A stretch of DNA of 8,062 nt from a virus (Duplodnaviria > Heunggongvirae > Uroviricota > Caudoviricetes): the IMG/VR virus record IMGVR_UViG_2802429244_000020; one strand, 5' to 3'. This document shows positions 1 to 8,062 of this stretch, piece after piece. A program made the translations under genes and the position numbers. Each line of letters opens with the position of its first letter. The first letter of the stretch is position 1. The notes below the pieces were generated by a model. The model saw only the letters and a program-made list of their open reading frames with translations, had not been told where the DNA came from and made no database searches.

Positions 1-1014
1 TTACTCTACTGTGGACACTGTGTGGACACTCTCGGCCTCAGTACCACCTCTCAGCGGATTAAGAGAAATGGCGTCCTGAAGGTACTCTGGAGCAAAATGA
101 GCGTAAACCATAGTTTGCTCAATCCGCGTGTGACCTAGTATCCGTTGTAGCGTGATAATACTTCCTCCATTAATCATGAAATGAGTGGCAAAGCTGTGCC
201 TTAGTGCATGTGTGGCTTGCCCCATTGGCAAATCCGGTTTTATTGCTTTCATTGTTCGTCTGAAGCGAGGGTAATCAGCATCAGGGAATAAAAAACCTCG
301 TTTGTTATCCGCGATCATTTTGGCAACAGCCTCTGAGATCGGGACGGTGCGTGGTTTGTTTGTTTTCGTTTTAACAAACGTGACGCGGTTATGAATGATA
401 TTTTCTGCTTTCAAACGAGCTGCTTCTCCCCAACGTGCTCCAGTACTCAGGCAAAGAATCGCAATCTTTTTGTTGTCGCCGTCAAGAGCTGCGAGCAGTA
501 AGGCAATTTCTTCCTGCGTGAGATAGCCTGTGTCTGGTTTTTCCTCCTTAAGCCTTTTTGTCCCTCTGATAGGGTGCTCACCAAAGTATAACTCCGCTTC
601 AATCAGGGCTGTAAACATGCCGCTAATACATGTTAAATCACGATTGATACTCGAAGGTTTAATACCCTGACTTCTTCGGGTGGCGCAGTATTGGCTGATA
701 AGCGATTTCGTAATTTGAAATGCGCATGGGTCATTCGTTATTTTTGTGAAGATTTCAATTTTTCCAAGATTAGATTTCCCATGCTCTTCGTGTTTACCCT
801 TTAAATCCCACCAGATCTGTGTCAGCTCCGACAGACGTCGCTTGTCTGTTGGTTTTGATAGCCATTCTTTATTGTGGTGGTTGTACAACGTGTATTTCTC
901 GAAAGCGACAGCTTCGCTTTTCTTATCAAACTTCCTACGGATGCGTTTTCCATTACGTCCAGTAGGGCGGATGTCCACTTCATATCGACCATCATCGAGT
1001 TTTTTGATTGCCAT
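1..1014 (-). CDS. int: P2-type tyrosine integrase (site-specific recombinase), complete, 337 aa
   Basis: Full ORF on minus strand: ATG at 1014..1012, stop TAA at 3..1. GGAGG lies 8 nt upstream of the ATG on the minus strand. C-terminal tyrosine-recombinase motifs are visible in the translation: ARWGEAARL (Arg box), HALRHSFATHF (HxxR), LGH and TMVYAHF (catalytic Tyr). N-terminus MAIKKLDDGRYEVD is typical of P2-family Int. Confidence 0.95.
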   Translation of the reverse strand: MAIKKLDDGRYEVDIRPTGRNGKRIRRKFDKKSEAVAFEKYTLYNHHNKEWLSKPTDKRRLSELTQIWWDLKGKHEEHGKSNLGKIEIFTKITNDPCAFQITKSLISQYCATRRSQGIKPSSINRDLTCISGMFTALIEAELYFGEHPIRGTKRLKEEKPDTGYLTQEEIALLLAALDGDNKKIAILCLSTGARWGEAARLKAENIIHNRVTFVKTKTNKPRTVPISEAVAKMIADNKRGFLFPDADYPRFRRTMKAIKPDLPMGQATHALRHSFATHFMINGGSIITLQRILGHTRIEQTMVYAHFAPEYLQDAISLNPLRGGTEAESVHTVSTVE

Positions 1015-1129
1015 CAGAAAACCCTCCGAGTGGTGTGTTTTTTTGCGACTACTAATCGTTTTTTTCGTGGTGGCTGAAATTTAGCCACCAATAGTAGGCA
1101 CTTGTGATGAATATATTCACGATGAATTG

Positions 1130-1429
1130 TTAACCAGTCTTTTGACCGGAGTGGGGCGACGTTGTTTCGTTTTGCCCAAAGTGTGCGAGAGCGGGCGCAA
1201 TTTGCCCGGACTCAGGAGCGATCTGATTTGTCATGAACCATAAAGTGTATTTGGTGAATTGTGGGGTCTGCAGGATGTTCATCATGACATCTGTTGGAGG
1301 TGTTGAACGACCACTTTCATAGTAACTCAGCGTGCCATACGGAACCCCTGTTAAATCAGCAAGTTGTTGTCTGCTCAAATACTCTGATTTTCGCATTAAG
1401 ACTATCTTCTCGCTTATCGTGTTTGACAT
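1130..1429 (-). CDS. C: Immunity repressor C (P2 C-like, 99 aa, HTH)
   Basis: 99-aa minus-strand ORF immediately upstream of int and divergent from cox. The N-terminal segment LSRQQLADLTGVPYGTLSYYESG looks like a helix-turn-helix. Size and position match P2 repressor C; the ATG (1429..1427) overlaps the -35 of the rightward promoter. Confidence 0.9.
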   Translation of the reverse strand: MSNTISEKIVLMRKSEYLSRQQLADLTGVPYGTLSYYESGRSTPPTDVMMNILQTPQFTKYTLWFMTNQIAPESGQIAPALAHFGQNETTSPHSGQKTG

Positions 1430-1451
1430 GGTGTTTAGATCTCAATAGTAT
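1423..1451 (+). promoter_or_regulatory. Early promoter Pe candidate: -35 TTGACA (1423-1428), 17-nt spacer, -10 TAGTAT (1446-1451)
   Basis: Perfect consensus -35 hexamer with a 17-nt spacer to a TAnnnT-type -10, oriented toward cox. The -10 sits between the two operator repeats, as described for P2 Pe. Confidence 0.55.
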
Positions 1452-1462
1452 TTAGTTTAGAT
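1433..1462. promoter_or_regulatory. Operator for repressor C: two exact 8-bp direct repeats GTTTAGAT (1433-1440 and 1455-1462), 22 bp centre to centre
   Basis: Exact direct repeat read from the sequence, flanking the putative Pe -10. P2 C is known to bind two 8-bp direct repeats flanking the Pe -10. A further TTTAG unit is at 1451-1455 and a degenerate TTTAGTG at 1471-1477. Confidence 0.6.
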
Positions 1463-1492
1463 GTAGATTGTTTAGTGCTTGGATGTGGGCAC

Positions 1493-1520
1493 TAAAAGGC
1501 ATTATAAGGCATTAAACGCA
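1493..1520. promoter_or_regulatory. Three tandem cox-box-like repeats (TAAAAGGCA 1493-1501, TATAAGGCA 1503-1511, TTAAACGCA 1512-1520)
   Basis: Three 9-bp direct repeats at roughly 10-bp periodicity, fitting the T(T/A)(A/T)AA(G/C)NCA pattern I recall for P2 Cox binding sites. They overlap the candidate Pc -10, consistent with Cox repressing Pc. The consensus is from memory. Confidence 0.45.
1501..1506 (-). promoter_or_regulatory. Leftward lysogenic promoter Pc candidate: perfect -10 TATAAT on minus strand
   Basis: Plus-strand ATTATA at 1501-1506 is TATAAT on the minus strand, pointing toward C/int. No good -35 is found at 16-18-nt spacing, so this would be a weak promoter. It is about 50 bp from the Pe -10 on the opposite strand, giving the face-to-face arrangement known for P2. 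Confidence 0.4.
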
Positions 1521-1543
1521 ATTCATGAGGGCTGGAGGACGAC

Positions 1544-1819
1544 ATGAGCAAGCAAGTAACACTCATGACTGATGCGATTCCTTATCAGGAGTTCGCAAAA
1601 CTAATAGGAAAATCGACAGGAGCGGTTCGTCGGATGATCGATAAAGGAAAGCTGCCTGTAATTGATATGACCGATCCACAATCAGCTTCAGGTCGTGCAG
1701 GTGAATATTGGGTATATCTTCCGGCATGGAATAACGGACTAAAACTGGCTTATGAAAGCCGCCCTAAAGAGATTCGTGACGGCTGGTTGATGTGGTTAGG
1801 TCTTGGTGAACCACGTTAA
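1544..1819 (+). CDS. cox: Cox (excisionase / developmental-switch repressor of Pc), 91 aa
   Basis: First gene of the rightward operon, divergent from C. GGAGG at 1534-1538, 5 nt before the ATG. 91 aa, matching the size and position of P2 Cox. Confidence 0.9.
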   Translation: MSKQVTLMTDAIPYQEFAKLIGKSTGAVRRMIDKGKLPVIDMTDPQSASGRAGEYWVYLPAWNNGLKLAYESRPKEIRDGWLMWLGLGEPR

Positions 1820-1829
1820 GGAGAACCGT

Positions 1830-2000
1830 ATGAATGAGCCTCGTTGTATTGCTCAGTTATTGCGTAACGAAAGCCCCAGGGCGATTGACTTCAACATCAC
1901 CCACGGTAAGGGGCGTAAGGGAATCATTATCCGCACCAAAAAACAGAGTCCGTTAAAAAAGGTTCTGACCTTTCTGAAAAGCCGGAGGGTATGGAAATGA
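1830..2000 (+). CDS. Small basic hypothetical protein (56 aa) between cox and B, P2 orf78-like position
   Basis: The ORF track starts at a TTG at 1803; the first ATG with a Shine-Dalgarno (GGAG 1820-1823, 6-nt spacer) is at 1830. Lys/Arg-rich. Stop TGA 1998-2000 overlaps the B start codon. Confidence 0.6.
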   Translation: MNEPRCIAQLLRNESPRAIDFNITHGKGRKGIIIRTKKQSPLKKVLTFLKSRRVWK

Positions 2001-2497
2001 CAGTGATGACGCTCAATCTCGTTGAAAAACAGCCAACAACTATGCGCCGGATAATTGGTAAGCATCTGGCCGTCCCTCGCTGGCAGGAGACATGCGATTA
2101 TTATAATCAGATGATGGAACGCGAACGGTTAACGGTTTGCTTCCATGCGCAGTTAAAACAACGTCACGCAACGATGCGTTTTGAAGAAATGAACGACGTC
2201 GAACGTGAACGGCTGGTTTGTGCAATTGATGAACTGCGCGGGGCATTCTCAAAACGCCGTCAGGTCGGTGCAAGTGAGTATGCATATATTAGTTTTTTAA
2301 CAGTCAGTCAGCGTCGTACTTTATTTATGCATGCGGGATTGACAGAAAAAGAATTCAATCAGCCGTACTGGCGCATTAATGAAGAATCATGTTACTGGCG
2401 TGATGCTTTATTCCGTGCATTACGTGAATTATTCAGCCTGTTTGAGTATGCACCGACAATTCTGACGTCGGTAAAACCAGAGCAATATCTGCATTAA
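1997..2497 (+). CDS. B: Replication protein B (P2 B-like, 166 aa from the ATG at 1997)
   Basis: ORF after cox in conserved P2 order. Three in-frame ATGs (1991, 1997, 2006); 1997 has the best spacing (8 nt) from GGAGG at 1984-1988 and gives 166 aa, the size I recall for P2 B. ATGA overlap with the upstream stop. Confidence 0.8.
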   Translation: MTVMTLNLVEKQPTTMRRIIGKHLAVPRWQETCDYYNQMMERERLTVCFHAQLKQRHATMRFEEMNDVERERLVCAIDELRGAFSKRRQVGASEYAYISFLTVSQRRTLFMHAGLTEKEFNQPYWRINEESCYWRDALFRALRELFSLFEYAPTILTSVKPEQYLH

Positions 2498-2560
2498 GTA
2501 ATTAACCAGAGTTTTTAACGCACTTAATTGTGCGGGGCTTCTTTTTGCCTGGAGAAAGTC

Positions 2561-2785
2561 ATGCATACAGTTTCTGAAAATCAGTGCGGTAAATACGCAT
2601 TACTGCTGCAACAGGCCAGAACCGAAGCACAGGCTGATGCTGCGACGCGCTTTTCTTCTCATCTTGACGCCATGATTCGCCACATCACAAAGGCGGAGTT
2701 ATCCCGCGTGGAGATAGTCGAGCTGCTCAGTCAGGAGTCGGAAAAATTTCACAATATCGGATTGTCTCGCGGGGAGGTGCTTTGA
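2561..2785 (+). CDS. Hypothetical early-operon protein (74 aa)
   Basis: The ORF track starts at a TTG at 2528; the first ATG at 2561 is preceded by GGAG (2551-2554, 6-nt spacer). About 50% G+C like the core. Stop TGA 2783-2785 overlaps the next ATG. Confidence 0.65.
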
Positions 2786-3087
2786 TGTCCTGTTCTCATT
2801 CAGTTGTATTACTGAATAACGCCTTAAAAATCGCCGTTATGAAAAATGGCGATTTGTCTCTTATTCAACTTTGTCTTGATAAAGAAAAACGCGACATAAC
2901 TGAATCTGTTATCGCGATTTATCAGAATGAATTAAACCTACTGTCTGATGTGGTCAATTTACTTGTTAAACGCGCTGTATTCCACAAGCAAGTTTCCTCC
3001 GTGGATGAACTAACAAAATTAACGACAGAAATCGCCAGTTATTGCGCTGATGAATTTAAGAAACTGAACGACAAAAGGAACTGGTAA
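2785..3087 (+). CDS. Hypothetical protein (100 aa), markedly AT-rich
   Basis: ATG at 2785 with GGAGG at 2773-2777 (7-nt spacer); the track's 2782 start is a TTG. Hand-counted G+C of two 60-nt lines inside it is about 32-35%, against about 53% in the flanking ORF. TAATG overlap with the next gene. Confidence 0.65.
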   Translation: MSCSHSVVLLNNALKIAVMKNGDLSLIQLCLDKEKRDITESVIAIYQNELNLLSDVVNLLVKRAVFHKQVSSVDELTKLTTEIASYCADEFKKLNDKRNW

Positions 3088-3311
3088 TGCCGGACAACGT
3101 AGATTTTATTCAGGAACAACAGGCTGAATTACTGGAGCGTCATATTAATGCGGCAAGGGTAAAACATTGCGGTGTTTCTGCGCTGGTTTGTGAAGAGTGT
3201 GACGCGCCAATACCTGCTGCCCGTCGTGCGGCTTATCCGTCAGCCACGCGTTGTGTTTCCTGCCAGTCAGTCTTTGAAGCAAAAAACAAGCATTACCGGA
3301 GAATGGCATGA
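3087..3311 (+). CDS. TraR/DksA-family C4 zinc-finger protein (74 aa)
   Basis: Two CxxC pairs (CEEC and CVSC) separated by about 17 residues in the C-terminal half, the usual DksA/TraR C4 arrangement. AGGA 7 nt upstream of the ATG. Proteins of this type are common in P2-like early operons. Confidence 0.7.
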   Translation: MPDNVDFIQEQQAELLERHINAARVKHCGVSALVCEECDAPIPAARRAAYPSATRCVSCQSVFEAKNKHYRRMA

Positions 3312-3586
3312 GTATTCGTATCGAAATTGGCGAACGTTATGTCGTTACCAGTGACAGCTTTCAGTTTATTCTCCACGAGAAAAAGAGAGCGGAAAGCGGT
3401 AAAAACGCCGGTCAGGAATGGCTGGCGGTGGTTGGTTATTACCCGAAATTAAGCCAGCTCGTTTCCGGCCTGATGCATCACGATATTCTGACCGGAAGCG
3501 CAAAGTCTTTTGCTGATTTAAACGCGCAGGTTGAGCAACTCAGCAAGCGTTGTTCAGAGGCGTTCTCCAGAGGAGCGTCTGAATGA
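3308..3586 (+). CDS. Hypothetical early-operon protein (92 aa)
   Basis: ATG 3308 overlaps the upstream stop (ATGA). GGAG at 3298-3301 with a 6-nt spacer. No recognisable motif. Confidence 0.65.
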   Translation: MSIRIEIGERYVVTSDSFQFILHEKKRAESGKNAGQEWLAVVGYYPKLSQLVSGLMHHDILTGSAKSFADLNAQVEQLSKRCSEAFSRGASE

Positions 3587-4590
3587 TTACTGATGCTCGT
3601 TGCCATACTGAAAATACCATCAATGTTATTTTTGTTTCAGGTGGAAAGGACAGCCTTGCTCAGTGGCTTGTCGCTATTGAAGAAAATGTACCCATATTGC
3701 CGGTTTTTGCTGATACGGGACATGAACATCCACAGACAATGAAATATCTGGATTATCTGGAAAAACGGCTTGGCCCAATTAAAAGGGTCAGGGCTGATTT
3801 TTCCTGCCGGATTGAATCAAAGCGCAAGTTTATCCAGACCAAATGGCCTGATTTGTTGGTTAACGATTGTGGAATGTCGGAAGAAGAAGCGCACCAGCGC
3901 ATCAGTTGTGCGCTGGAAATTCTCAAACCAACGGGTATCCCGTTTCTTGATTTGTGTCTGTGGAAGGGGCGTTTCCCATCAACCAAAGCCAGATTTTGCA
4001 CATTTGAACTGAAACATGAGCCCGTGCGTTCTCAGGTAATATTGCCTTTACTCAATGAATTTGAGGAAGTGATTAGCTGGCAGGGAGTGCGTGCTCAGGA
4101 ATCGCCATCACGCGCTGCTTTACCTGTCTGGGAAGAGGATGCAGACAACACCCCCGGATTGCATGTATATCGCCCGATTTTGCACTGGAAGCATGAAGAT
4201 GTATTTGCAATAGCCAGAAGACATGACATTAAGCCAAATCCGTTATATCAGCAGGGGTGTGGCCGTGTTGGTTGTATGCCATGTATTCATGTCCGTAAAT
4301 CTGAACTGGCAGAAATTTTTCGCCGGTGGCCGGAGGAAATAAAACGGGTTGCTGAATGGGAACGACTGGTTGCGTCGTGCTCCCGTCGGGGAAATTCCAC
4401 TTTTTTCCCATCCACACATGATCCGCTACGCGCAGAACGTCGTATTGAGATTGTAACAGTCGAGGCATACGGAATAGAAACCTACCATGACTGGACAATG
4501 ACAACGCGTGGGGGTACTCAGTTTGATTTACTGGCTTCGGCGAATGATAAAGCCGTTTGCAGTAGTGTCTATGCCGGTGTATGTGAATGA
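3583..4590 (+). CDS. PAPS-reductase-like PP-loop ATP-pyrophosphatase family protein (335 aa)
   Basis: N-terminal FVSGGKDS matches the SGGxDS PP-loop motif of the PAPS reductase / adenine-nucleotide alpha-hydrolase superfamily. Cys-rich C-terminal segment QQGCGRVGCMPC. AGGAG at 3571-3575 (7-nt spacer); ATGA overlap at both ends. Confidence 0.8.
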   Translation: MITDARCHTENTINVIFVSGGKDSLAQWLVAIEENVPILPVFADTGHEHPQTMKYLDYLEKRLGPIKRVRADFSCRIESKRKFIQTKWPDLLVNDCGMSEEEAHQRISCALEILKPTGIPFLDLCLWKGRFPSTKARFCTFELKHEPVRSQVILPLLNEFEEVISWQGVRAQESPSRAALPVWEEDADNTPGLHVYRPILHWKHEDVFAIARRHDIKPNPLYQQGCGRVGCMPCIHVRKSELAEIFRRWPEEIKRVAEWERLVASCSRRGNSTFFPSTHDPLRAERRIEIVTVEAYGIETYHDWTMTTRGGTQFDLLASANDKAVCSSVYAGVCE

Positions 4591-6872
4591 GTCATTCTTT
4601 CCAGGAGCAATACACCTGCGTACCTCCGTCTGCGTTTGCCGCAGGCACCGGTAAGGCGTTTACCGGTGCTTATGCATGGAACGCGCCACGCGAGGCTGTC
4701 GGGCGCGAAAGACCCCTTACACGTGACGAGATGCGTCAGGTGCAAAGTGTTTTATCCACGATTAACCGCCTGCCTTACTTTTTGCGCTCGCTGTTTACTT
4801 CACGCTATGACTACATCCGGCGCAATAAAAGCCCGGTGCACGGGTTTTATTTCCTCACATCCACTTTTCAGCGTCGTTTATGGCCGCGCATTGAGCGTGT
4901 GAATCAGCGCCATGAAATGAACACTGACGCGTCGTTGCTGTTTCTGGCAGAGCGTGACCATTATGCGCGTTTGCCTGGAATGAATGACAAGGAGCTGAAA
5001 AAGTTTGCCGCCCGTATCTCATCACAGCTTTTCATGATGTATGAGGAACTCTGCGATGCCTGGGTGGATGCGCATGGCGAGAAAGAATCGCTGTTTACGG
5101 ATGAGGCGCAGGCTCACCTGTATGGTCATGTTGCTGGCGCTGCACGAGCTTTCAATATTTCCCCTCTCTACTGGAAAAAATACCGTAAAGGGCAGATAAC
5201 CACGAGGCAGGCATATTCTGCCATTGCCCGTCTGTTTAACGATGAGTGGTGGACTCATCAGCTTAAAGGCCAGCGTATGCGCTGGCATGAGGCGTTACTG
5301 ATTGCTGTCGGGGAGGTGAATAAAGACCGTTCTCCTTATGCCAGTAAACATGCCATTCGTGATGTACGTGCACGCCGCCAGGCAAATCTGGAATTTCTTA
5401 AATCGTGTGACCTTGAAAACAGGGAAACCGGCGAGCGCATCGACCTTATCAGTAAGGTGATGGGCAGTATTTCTAATCCTGAAATTCGCCGGATGGAGCT
5501 GATGAACACCATTGCCGGTATTGAGCGTTACGCCGCCGCAGAGGGTGATGTGGGGATGTTTATCACGCTGACCGCGCCGTCAAAGTATCACCCGACACGT
5601 CAGGTCAGAAAAGGCGAAAGTAAAACCGTTCAGCTTAATCACGGCTGGAACGATGAGGCATTTAATCCAAAGGATGCGCAGCGTTATCTCTGCCGCATCT
5701 GGAGCCTGATGCGCACGGCATTCAAGGATAATGATTTACAGGTCTACGGTTTGCGTGTCGTCGAGCCACACCACGACGGAACGCCGCACTGGCATATGAT
5801 GCTTTTTTGTAATCCGCGCCAGCGTAACCAGATTATCGAAATCATGCGTCGCTATGCGCTCAAAGAGGATGGCGACGAAAGAGGAGCCGCGCGAAACCGT
5901 TTTCAGGCAAAACACCTTAATCGGGGCGGTGCTGCGGGGTATATCGCGAAATACATCTCAAAAAACATCGACGGCTATGCACTGGATGGTCAGCTCGATA
6001 ACGATACCGGCAGACCTCTGAAAGATACTGCCGCGGCTGTTACTGCATGGGCGTCAACGTGGCGCATCCCGCAATTTAAAACGGTTGGTCTGCCGACAAT
6101 GGGGGCTTACCGTGAACTACGCAAATTGCCGCGCGGCGTCAGCATTGCTGATGAGTTTGACGAGCGCGTCGAGGCTGCACGCGCCGCCGCAGACAGTGGT
6201 GATTTTGCGTTGTATATCAGCGCGCAGGGTGGGGCAAATGTCCCGCGCGATTGTCAGACTGTCAGGGTCGCCCGTAGCCCGTCGGATGACGTTAACGAGT
6301 ACGAGGAAGAGGTCGAGAGAGTGGTCGGCATTTACGCGCCGCATCTCGGCGCGCGTCATATTCATATCACCAGAACGACGGACTGGCGCATTGTGCCGAA
6401 AGTTCCGGTCGTTGAGCCTTTGACTTTAAAAAGCGGCATCGCCGCGCCTCGGAGTCCTGTCAATAACTGTGGAAAGCCTGCCAGCAGTGATGCTTCGTTA
6501 CCGGCTCCCACACCTTCTGAACACGCCGCAGCAGTGCTTAATCTGGTAGATGACGGTGTTATCGAATGGAATGACCCGGAGGTTGTGAGGGCGCTCAGGG
6601 GGGCATTAAAACACGGCCTGAGAAGACCAAATCGCCAGCAAAGAAACGGAAGCCCGTTAAAACCACATGAAATAGCGCCATCGGCCAGACTGACCCGGTC
6701 GGAACGAATGCAAATTACCCGTATCCGCGTTGACCTTGCTCAGAACGGTATCAGGCCTCAGCGATGGGAGCTTGAGGCGCTGGCGCGTGGCGCGACTGTA
6801 AATTATGACGGGAAAAAATTCGCTTATCCGGTCGCTGATGGATGGCCAGGGTTCACAACTGTAATAGATTGA
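4587..6872 (+). CDS. A: Rolling-circle replication initiator endonuclease A (P2 gpA-like, 761 aa)
   Basis: 761-aa ORF at the conserved position. HUH-type motif HWH (nt 5787-5795, within GTPHWHMMLF) and two tyrosines four residues apart in YIAKYISK (Tyr codons 5940-5942 and 5952-5954), the hallmark of P2 A-type nicking initiators. Confidence 0.95.
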   Translation: MSHSFQEQYTCVPPSAFAAGTGKAFTGAYAWNAPREAVGRERPLTRDEMRQVQSVLSTINRLPYFLRSLFTSRYDYIRRNKSPVHGFYFLTSTFQRRLWPRIERVNQRHEMNTDASLLFLAERDHYARLPGMNDKELKKFAARISSQLFMMYEELCDAWVDAHGEKESLFTDEAQAHLYGHVAGAARAFNISPLYWKKYRKGQITTRQAYSAIARLFNDEWWTHQLKGQRMRWHEALLIAVGEVNKDRSPYASKHAIRDVRARRQANLEFLKSCDLENRETGERIDLISKVMGSISNPEIRRMELMNTIAGIERYAAAEGDVGMFITLTAPSKYHPTRQVRKGESKTVQLNHGWNDEAFNPKDAQRYLCRIWSLMRTAFKDNDLQVYGLRVVEPHHDGTPHWHMMLFCNPRQRNQIIEIMRRYALKEDGDERGAARNRFQAKHLNRGGAAGYIAKYISKNIDGYALDGQLDNDTGRPLKDTAAAVTAWASTWRIPQFKTVGLPTMGAYRELRKLPRGVSIADEFDERVEAARAAADSGDFALYISAQGGANVPRDCQTVRVARSPSDDVNEYEEEVERVVGIYAPHLGARHIHITRTTDWRIVPKVPVVEPLTLKSGIAAPRSPVNNCGKPASSDASLPAPTPSEHAAAVLNLVDDGVIEWNDPEVVRALRGALKHGLRRPNRQQRNGSPLKPHEIAPSARLTRSERMQITRIRVDLAQNGIRPQRWELEALARGATVNYDGKKFAYPVADGWPGFTTVID

Positions 6873-6978
6873 AATAGTGTGAATATCTAAGAGATAAAAC
6901 TATATAAGGTGTGTATTAATACTGTGCTGGAGGAAAAGGTGAAAACCAGATGGCATGGCTACAATAATAAAACGATAA

Positions 6979-7007
6979 GCCTCATTTTTAATGAGGCCGT
7001 TTTTATT
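6979..7007. terminator. Bidirectional intrinsic terminator candidate between A and the leftward cargo genes
   Basis: 8-bp perfect inverted repeat GCCTCATT / AATGAGGC (6979-6986 and 6990-6997) with a 3-nt loop, followed on plus by CGTTTTTATT and preceded by AATAATAAAACGATAA (a T-rich tract on the minus strand). It lies 107 nt after the A stop and about 40 nt after the stop of the leftward 223-aa gene. Confidence 0.6.
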
Positions 7008-7037
7008 ACATCAAAAGAATTGAATTGTATTGTTAAC

Positions 7038-7709
7038 TTAAAGGGCAAACCTTTCTATGGTTCGATACACCTTGTCAAAAATTTGCTCTGAAAGTGAAAT
7101 GGACCCATTTGTGTTAATTTCTAATGACTCATAACCGGTCACATCCTTAACATTAAGTTTAACTTTATCAATTGTAAAATTTGCATTTTTGAAAATGTTT
7201 CTTATTTCCATAAGTGCGTCACTTGATGACTCAAGTTCCAGTATGCCGGATGTGTGCTTGCTAAACGTTAAGTCTTTTAATTTTGCTTTGTGCACTTGTA
7301 TTTTTTCAAAGTGCGGGGTCAGGAAATAAATGAAGTCCTCAATTTTGATGTTGAGATTTGACACATTAAAATCAGAATGTGTTGATTTAATTATGTTTGA
7401 TATGAAGTTTTTAATGCTTCTGGGAGGCGACTCAATGATTAAGATGAAGTTTTTACCTTTTGTTGTGTAAAGCCAAAAGTTAAATTGAATATATTTTAGC
7501 TGTGTATATTGAGTCTCGTTTCCATATGGATCAACGATTATCTCGTTGACCTCTACTTTCTCGATGTATCGAGATGATATTGCATTTTCTTCATATGAGT
7601 TGATACTAAATCCCCAGCCTTTATCACTATCAAAAGGAGTGTTAATGATAGACTGATATAAACTATCAAGTCCAGCAGGGAAGTTGGCAGTAAACCATTT
7701 TGTTTTCAT
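7038..7709 (-). CDS. Hypothetical AT-rich cargo protein (223 aa), distal gene of a leftward operon in the post-A variable locus
   Basis: Complete minus-strand ORF. ATG at 7709..7707 is preceded by AAGGAG (plus 7715-7720, 5-nt spacer). Only 11 nt separate it from the upstream gene's stop. No Cys, no long hydrophobic segment, rich in N/I/K/F/S. No motif I can recognise. Confidence 0.75.
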   Translation of the reverse strand: MKTKWFTANFPAGLDSLYQSIINTPFDSDKGWGFSINSYEENAISSRYIEKVEVNEIIVDPYGNETQYTQLKYIQFNFWLYTTKGKNFILIIESPPRSIKNFISNIIKSTHSDFNVSNLNIKIEDFIYFLTPHFEKIQVHKAKLKDLTFSKHTSGILELESSSDALMEIRNIFKNANFTIDKVKLNVKDVTGYESLEINTNGSISLSEQIFDKVYRTIERFAL

Positions 7710-7720
7710 AACAACTCCTT

Positions 7721-8062
7721 TTATTTATCAGTAACAACCTCAATTGTGTTTGAGGCGATAATACTGTTTGAAATTTCGCGAGCGGTTTTTTCAAGTGCTA
7801 ATAATAGCAGTTTTTCCTTCTCTTTATCTACATTTTGACGATTTGCATATTCGTTTATATTTTTGTACTTATAAACACCGCGAACGATATACGAGAATAA
7901 CTTGCAATTATCTGGGTCGACAAATTGAGCCTCGAATTCATATTTGTCCGAGTCTTTATAAGTGTCAACAACAGAACTCCAAATGATTTTGGTAATATAA
8001 AATCCTTTTCCTAACAACTCTTTAAACTCGAGAGAGTCAAGAACGCTGCGCCCTTTTAGTGA
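7721..8062 (-). CDS. 3' end (last 113 codons) of a larger leftward cargo gene; 5' part lies beyond the window
   Basis: The minus-strand reading frame is open from the window edge (8062) to the TAA at 7723..7721. The track's start at 8017 is a TTG, and translation continues upstream without a stop (…SLKGRSVLDSLEFKELLGKGFYITK…). Same low G+C as the downstream gene. Confidence 0.7.
   Translation of the reverse strand, partial: SLKGRSVLDSLEFKELLGKGFYITKIIWSSVVDTYKDSDKYEFEAQFVDPDNCKLFSYIVRGVYKYKNINEYANRQNVDKEKEKLLLLALEKTAREISNSIIASNTIEVVTDK

Follow-up and report, generated by a model that had tools for sequence, protein, structure and literature searches.

A divergent 3HP operon in the variable slot of a P2-like prophage, with remote homology suggesting a relation to GAPS4

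Results and discussion

Assignment to the 3HP family

The viral contig IMGVR_UViG_2802429244_000020 (8,062 nt, the whole stretch analysed and hereafter called the window) corresponds to the left arm of a P2-like prophage, and behind its replication gene A lies the end of an operon that is a divergent member of the 3HP (Rst_3HP) anti-phage family, a family already described, so that no new system is at hand. With high confidence, as judged from sequence comparison, the two leftward genes found there belong to the three-gene operon Hp1-Hp2-Hp3. The window would hold its promoter-distal end, i.e., the complete Hp3 gene and the final 113 codons of the Hp2 gene, with Hp1 and the promoter presumably located past the window end. 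The best explanation overall, which we favour with moderate confidence, is a cargo operon of the P2 A-Q interval that would act as a DNA-damage-triggered abortive DNase.

Comparison with the defence-specific PADLOC library assigned the 223-amino-acid (aa) protein of the window to the Hp3 model PDLC03006 (6e-8, profile positions 3-199 of 227) and the gene fragment next to it to the C-terminus of the Hp2 model PDLC03005 (1.6e-10, positions 250-353 of 359). An E. coli prophage, here named L001, is 99.4 % identical to the window over 6800-8062 and presents the complete operon between gene A and the portal gene Q, coding for Hp1 (354 aa), Hp2 (370 aa) and Hp3 (223 aa). At the protein level, the window and L001 do not differ in Hp3 or in residues 258-370 of Hp2. 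An initial annotation made from the letters of the window had expected the operon to continue beyond it, and this is borne out by L001, in which the Hp2 gene is full at 370 aa and is preceded upstream by the gene of 354 aa. Full-length L001 Hp2 matched PDLC03005 with 3.6e-37 (positions 4-353 of 359), and L001 Hp1, named in RefSeq a 'PD-(D/E)XK nuclease domain-containing protein', matched PDLC03004 over the full length with 1.7e-63.

The A-Q interval of P2 prophages is a hotspot at which anti-phage systems are encoded (Rousset et al. 2022, Cell Host Microbe, PMC9122126). From this hotspot of E. coli E1114 an operon annotated as 'hp + hp + hp' was cloned as pFR109 (Table S2 of that study), and it gave protection against P1, one of eight phages. 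BLASTP of the L001 proteins against this tested operon yielded 36 % identity for Hp1 (2e-67), 31 % for Hp2 (2e-39) and 19 % for Hp3 (1e-10, 201 residues). Both operons consist of three co-oriented genes in the order Hp1-Hp2-Hp3 with products of approximately 350, 365 and 225 aa, both reside in the A-Q hotspot of P2-like prophages, and all three proteins are homologous; the identities just given mark the operon described here as a divergent subtype. The exact RefSeq protein trio of L001 is included as a P2 locus in Table S5 of the same study.

The initial annotation had proposed an uncharacterised system whose proteins show no assignable motif. The latter part stands for the general libraries: searches of Hp1, Hp2 and Hp3 against Pfam and NCBIfam gave nothing above noise (with a Pfam set that did not contain PF26115), Hp2 and Hp3 had no Pfam match at E <= 1 beyond noise, the family profiles of all three proteins found no match among the PDB sequences, and PHROGs carries the three families as unknown function. 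A 2024 survey still regarded Rst_3HP as unclassifiable by domain. For the defence-specific library it does not stand, in view of the Hp2 and Hp3 models of PADLOC. The novelty of the system had to be given up, because the PADLOC models, the BLASTP matches to pFR109 and the trio in Table S5 place the operon in the described 3HP family, of which only the mechanism is unpublished; a match to an already described system, named in the annotation itself as the finding that would speak against novelty, is provided by 3HP. That the operon is an anti-phage system, as had been proposed, is very probable.

The slot and its cargo

The position between gene A and gene Q in L001 agrees with the old/tin slot of P2 that had been suggested for the operon. 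The slot is variable: the backbone (1-6851, coverage of at least 80 %) was present in 343 complete E. coli genomes, the 3HP cargo region (identity of at least 99 %) in nine. E. coli ECA64 (L008) has the same backbone, including the gene with a PAPS-reductase domain, and a different cargo in its A-Q slot (13324-15718), consisting of a small hypothetical gene, an HTH regulator, a reverse-transcriptase family protein and a 266-aa hypothetical protein; this cargo may be retron- or DRT-like. In megablast searches the backbone homology to other E. coli prophages ended at about 6851, approximately 20 nt before the stop codon of A. This apparently places the recombination boundary of the hotspot within the final codons of A. 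A phage collection, searched with the region by megablast, yielded no match. With Old and Tin of P2 the 3HP operon shares the genomic slot and the role of prophage-borne exclusion cargo, but no homology to the Hp proteins was detected: BLASTP of Hp3 against Tin gave an E-value of 0.81, and PADLOC reported for the window proteins only Hp2 and Hp3.

In L001, a sequence at 12243-12300 (GGCGAGGCGGGGAAAGCAC), which we take to be a P2 cos-type sequence, is situated between the region upstream of Hp1 and gene Q; if it is cos, the 3HP promoter region would abut the cos site. Upstream of L001 Hp1 no strong sigma-70 match was found except a 9/12 site overlapping the start codon.

Distribution of 3HP loci

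The 3HP family reaches far beyond P2 prophages. A word-seeded search returned Hp3 homologues, with identities as low as 36 %, from Enterobacterales only; the exact Hp3 sequence occurred on 655 contigs and near-identical sequences on at least 1000 contigs, largely of Salmonella. A HMMER search with the Hp2 profile over 1.84 billion representative proteins retrieved 614 clusters (50 % identity) at E <= 1e-3, and a genome scan with the Hp2 alignment located 29 loci in Gamma-, Beta- and Alphaproteobacteria and in Balneola. Together with five loci reached via Hp1 homologues, and with the loci cut by contig ends set aside, all 32 complete loci kept the order Hp1-Hp2-Hp3, which makes Hp3 an integral component; the Ralstonia locus encodes Hp3 in an open reading frame (ORF) with a TTG start that had not been called. 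Only three of the 29 scan loci (L001, L002 and L010), plus two remnants, had gpA or gpQ nearby. As most loci lie outside prophages, 3HP is a general mobile defence cassette that was captured by P2-like phages.

Two loci outside prophages have other genes of defence type as neighbours. The Alteromonas locus (L005, 4138-5658) adjoins Mrr_cat and NYN/OST-HTH genes and an integrase, and the Ralstonia locus (L007, 9902-10828) adjoins an SRA_ScoMcrA gene beside dnaA-dnaN-gyrB; either setting would fit a defence island.

Remote homology to GAPS4

Hp1 carries the signature of a nuclease. In 30 diverse Hp1 sequences the residues H50-P-x-D53 ... N-T-D72-L-K74-S-Y were invariant, a signature that corresponds to a PD-(D/E)XK core. 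Precomputed annotations of Hp1 homologues name PF26115 (PDDEXK_GAPS4). Thus a function of Hp1 as nuclease effector is quite probable.

GAPS4 is a defence system found in Vibrio parahaemolyticus (strain MAVP-R) and E. coli (strain RiKo) (Mahata et al., bioRxiv 10.1101/2023.03.28.534373 and 10.1101/2025.09.07.674715). According to the preprint, GAPS4a is a PD-(D/E)xK DNase and GAPS4b its ring-forming partner, both assembled into a 2:2 complex with GAPS4a docked on helical domains; the system responds to DNA breaks, is triggered by nalidixic acid or a type VI secretion system DNase, degrades host and phage DNA non-selectively, is abortive and protects against many phages. The sequences of GAPS4a (321 aa) and GAPS4b (379 aa) come from an AlphaFold3 file that accompanies the preprint as supplementary material. 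A hidden Markov model (HMM) of 120 Hp1 sequences scored 19.2 bits against GAPS4a (P 3e-8), while the best of 2000 shuffled sequences reached 8.0 and the reversed sequence 0.6. In the alignment, tested on L001 Hp1 from outside the window, HPxD falls on HGID59 and DLK on SVK81 of GAPS4a; a mutation of D59 abolishes GAPS4 defence (GAPS4 preprint). For the partner, a narrow Hp2 profile against the single GAPS4b sequence aligned in hhalign only over 54 N-terminal columns (E 0.056), which was judged insufficient. A wider Hp2 HMM of 209 sequences, built from the search of 1.84 billion proteins and furnished with shuffle and reversal controls, scored 16.0 bits against GAPS4b (P 2.8e-7), collinear over 17-283, compared to 6.5 for the best of 2000 shuffles and 2.4 for the reversed sequence. 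Hp3 had no detectable similarity to GAPS4b in hhalign.

The relation of Hp1 to GAPS4a and of Hp2 to GAPS4b thus appears to be one of remote, collinear homology. The gene order is the same and the sizes are comparable, 354 and 370 aa against 321 and 379 aa: the gene of an N-terminal PD-(D/E)xK nuclease leads, that of a partner of approximately 375 aa with a helical domain at its N-terminus comes second, and the catalytic H-x-x-D and x-x-K residues of the nucleases are aligned within the remote homology of both pairs. The two systems differ in the motif, HGxD...SxK in GAPS4a versus HPxD...DLK in Hp1, and in the number of genes, for GAPS4 has two, sometimes fused, whereas 3HP has the obligatory third gene Hp3. 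Since Hp3 is the third gene in all complete loci, the operon was not classed as GAPS4.

One side observation concerns the V. cholerae locus L004, where a gene for a 74-aa HNH-domain protein (8898-9122, minus strand) is located directly 3' of Hp3; L003 is otherwise identical and lacks it. HNH homing endonucleases, among them bas24_0090 and T7 gp3.8, have been reported to attenuate GAPS4 (GAPS4 preprint), and the adjacency in L004 may or may not be meaningful.

Predicted fold of Hp2 and Hp3

Structure prediction modelled both Hp2 and Hp3 as the RdgC/Iml3 DNA-binding fold, and Foldseek of the predicted fold against viral models listed phage RdgC first (E 2.7e-7). The part of Hp2 in the window is the predicted C-terminal beta-sheet/helix module of an RdgC-like protein. 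Proteins of this fold bind DNA non-specifically, either as homodimers in ring form or as heterodimers in horseshoe form: dimeric rings of RdgC hold DNA in a basic pore, Iml3-Chl4 (CENP-L/CENP-N) is a heterodimer that grips DNA, and RexA of phage lambda is a DNA binder and sensor in phage exclusion. Hp2 and Hp3 share with them the predicted fold but not sequence membership, as neither a Pfam RdgC match nor a PDB match was obtained; furthermore, RdgC is larger (approximately 300 aa versus 223 aa of Hp3), and a nuclease partner is a feature of neither RdgC nor RexA/RexB. The shared fold of Hp2 and Hp3 is not to be called paralogy, because hhalign with narrow and wide profiles revealed no sequence relationship between them.

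Proposed mechanism and alternatives

In the mechanism that we propose for the operon, Hp1 would be the PD-(D/E)XK DNase effector. Hp2, as counterpart of GAPS4b, would form an RdgC-fold ring or horseshoe, a scaffold that binds DNA and bears Hp1 on the helical domain at its N-terminus, and Hp3 would be a second subunit of RdgC/Iml3 fold that either pairs with Hp2, as Iml3 does with Chl4, or acts as its gate. With GAPS4 as the model, the complex may sense DNA ends, breaks or aberrant replication intermediates that arise during infection; sensing would set free a DNase that is not selective, and phage and host DNA alike would be destroyed in an abortive infection. The confidence differs between the parts. 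DNA damage or DNA ends as trigger, transferred from GAPS4, have in our estimate slightly less than an even chance, and for a hetero-clamp of Hp2 and Hp3 the estimate is lower, a suggestion to be taken as tentative. The same caution applies to the comprehensive version, 3HP as a form of the GAPS4 DNA-break sentinel extended to three subunits, in which a heteromeric clamp of RdgC/CENP-N-CENP-L type, formed by Hp2 and Hp3 around DNA, licenses Hp1; we put it forward as a conjecture. The extra subunit Hp3 and the narrow range of the tested 3HP operon, P1 only, leave room for another trigger.

Several points weigh against the favoured explanation. Defence was tested only with the E1114 homologue, of low identity (19 % for Hp3) and protective against one of eight phages. 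Hp1 lies outside the window, its presence in this operon being predicted from the 99.4 % identical L001. The homology to GAPS4 is remote, resting on HMM scores of 16-19 bits and shuffle controls, and against single GAPS4 sequences hhalign gave a probability of 42 % for Hp1 and nothing significant for Hp2. The structures of Hp2 and Hp3 are predicted monomers, and the mechanism of GAPS4 itself is known from a preprint. Finally, two genes suffice for GAPS4, so that the obligatory Hp3 may alter the trigger or the logic of the system.

The last point leads to the closest alternative, a 3HP-family defence that does not work like GAPS4, with Hp3 as sensor of a specific phage protein or DNA structure, for instance a P1-type replication or recombination intermediate or an anti-RecBCD factor, and with an Hp1 that would be selective for phage DNA and not abortive. 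Hp3 has no counterpart in GAPS4 and yet is present in every complete locus, the tested 3HP operon is narrow in comparison to the broad GAPS4, and Hp1 has the canonical DxK where GAPS4a has SxK. However, given the collinear homology of Hp1 and Hp2 to GAPS4a and GAPS4b, it is simpler to assume that the core mechanism is common to both systems, and a narrow range from one heterologous test is weak evidence; we regard this alternative as rather unlikely, albeit worth keeping in mind. Phages commonly place RdgC 'recombination-associated proteins' beside exonucleases, and the resemblance of Hp2 and Hp3 to RdgC would also suit a DNA-metabolism module of the prophage, a recombination modulator with a nuclease that would work in the replication or recombination of the P2-like phage itself, or an addiction module, neither serving defence. 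This is improbable, as the homologous operon conferred phage resistance when it was cloned alone, and the operon occupies an accessory hotspot with foreign G+C content and an orientation opposite to its surroundings. Furthermore, the prophage genes gpA or gpQ accompany only the few family loci counted above, some loci stand beside Mrr-, NYN- or SRA/McrA-type genes, and the same backbone functions with unrelated cargo. Least probable by far is the reading of the initial annotation, a defence system unrelated to any described family. It had in its favour the lack of Pfam and NCBIfam matches for Hp2 and Hp3, the lack of a sequence-related solved structure and the unknown function in PHROGs, but it is already refuted by the near full-length PADLOC matches of Hp1, Hp2 and Hp3, the BLASTP matches to validated proteins (E-values from 1e-10 to 2e-67) and the trio in the 2022 catalogue.

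3HP is not mentioned in either GAPS4 paper, and a link between 3HP, GAPS4 and RdgC seems to be unstated in the literature searched, a search that was itself incomplete. As drawn here, the putative link rests on remote-homology statistics and predicted structures.

Layout of the window

The features of the window are compiled in Table 1. The sharp decrease in G+C content right after the stop codon of A, noticed in the initial annotation, was confirmed: the content is 0.480 in 1-6872 and 0.534 inside gene A, but 0.334 in 6873-8062, a drop of approximately four standard deviations (windows of 1190 bases over the first ~6.6 kb: mean 0.472, standard deviation 0.034). The annotation had also recognised a leftward operon of at least two co-oriented, tightly coupled genes, opposite to and separate from the early operon, and a bidirectional terminator. 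Both observations hold, with the two genes on the minus strand (7038-7709 and 7721-8062) only 11 nt apart. The Shine-Dalgarno sequence of Hp3 is placed five nt before its ATG; the Hp2 stop codon occupies 7721-7723, and the Hp2 ORF is open up to 8062. The hairpin was called terminator-like on both strands (four such sites versus 0.8 in shuffled sequences), and it would terminate both the early operon and the 3HP operon.

Table 1 Features of the 8,062-nt window
Feature	Position	Strand	Remarks
Integrase gene	1-1014	-	P2-like prophage left arm
C repressor gene	1130-1429	-	P2-like prophage left arm
cox and early operon	after C repressor gene	+	
PAPS-reductase-domain gene	3583-4590	+	PF01507, 5.4e-35
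Replication gene A, P2-type	4587-6872	+	PF05840, 5.8e-123; left boundary of the variable slot
AT-rich spacer, A stop to Hp3 stop	6873-7037		G+C 0.309; identical in L001
Bidirectional intrinsic-terminator-like hairpin, GCCTCAT-loop-ATGAGGC	6978-6998		T-runs on both strands
Hp3 gene, complete	7038-7709	-	223 aa, 25.9 kDa; third 3HP subunit; predicted RdgC/Iml3 (TBP-like) fold
Hp2-Hp3 junction	7710-7720	-	11 nt; Shine-Dalgarno AAGGAG at 7715-7720; read from sequence
Hp2 gene, 3' end	7721-8062	-	Codons 258-370 of 370 and stop; gene runs past the window end

A plus-strand ORF of 60 aa with a GTG start (6909-7091) is probably no gene: it contains the terminator hairpin, reaches into the 3' part of Hp3 and is unrelated to the 60-aa coding sequence annotated at the equivalent position of L002.

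The gene with the PAPS-reductase domain shares 4 nt with the start of gene A. Among the PADLOC models it resembled SspD (2.7e-21), BrxP (8e-13) and DndC (1e-7), and it may serve in DNA modification or counter-defence. The gene is present in some P2-like backbones, e.g., in L008, and absent in L001; because L001 has the same 3HP cargo without it, backbone and cargo form a mosaic.

Implications

Standard defence finders would name the operon 3HP, and its exact trio is already part of a published catalogue. The analysis adds a concrete and testable mechanism for a family to which surveys give no recognisable domains. If it is confirmed, two defence families that catalogues at present keep apart, 3HP and GAPS4, would merge, and 3HP would be explained as a DNA-damage sentinel, with a predicted cost for the many Salmonella and E. 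coli carriers in form of a sensitisation to quinolones and DNase toxins. If true, the RdgC fold, as in RexA of phage lambda, would be a recurrent sensor of the DNA state in phage exclusion.
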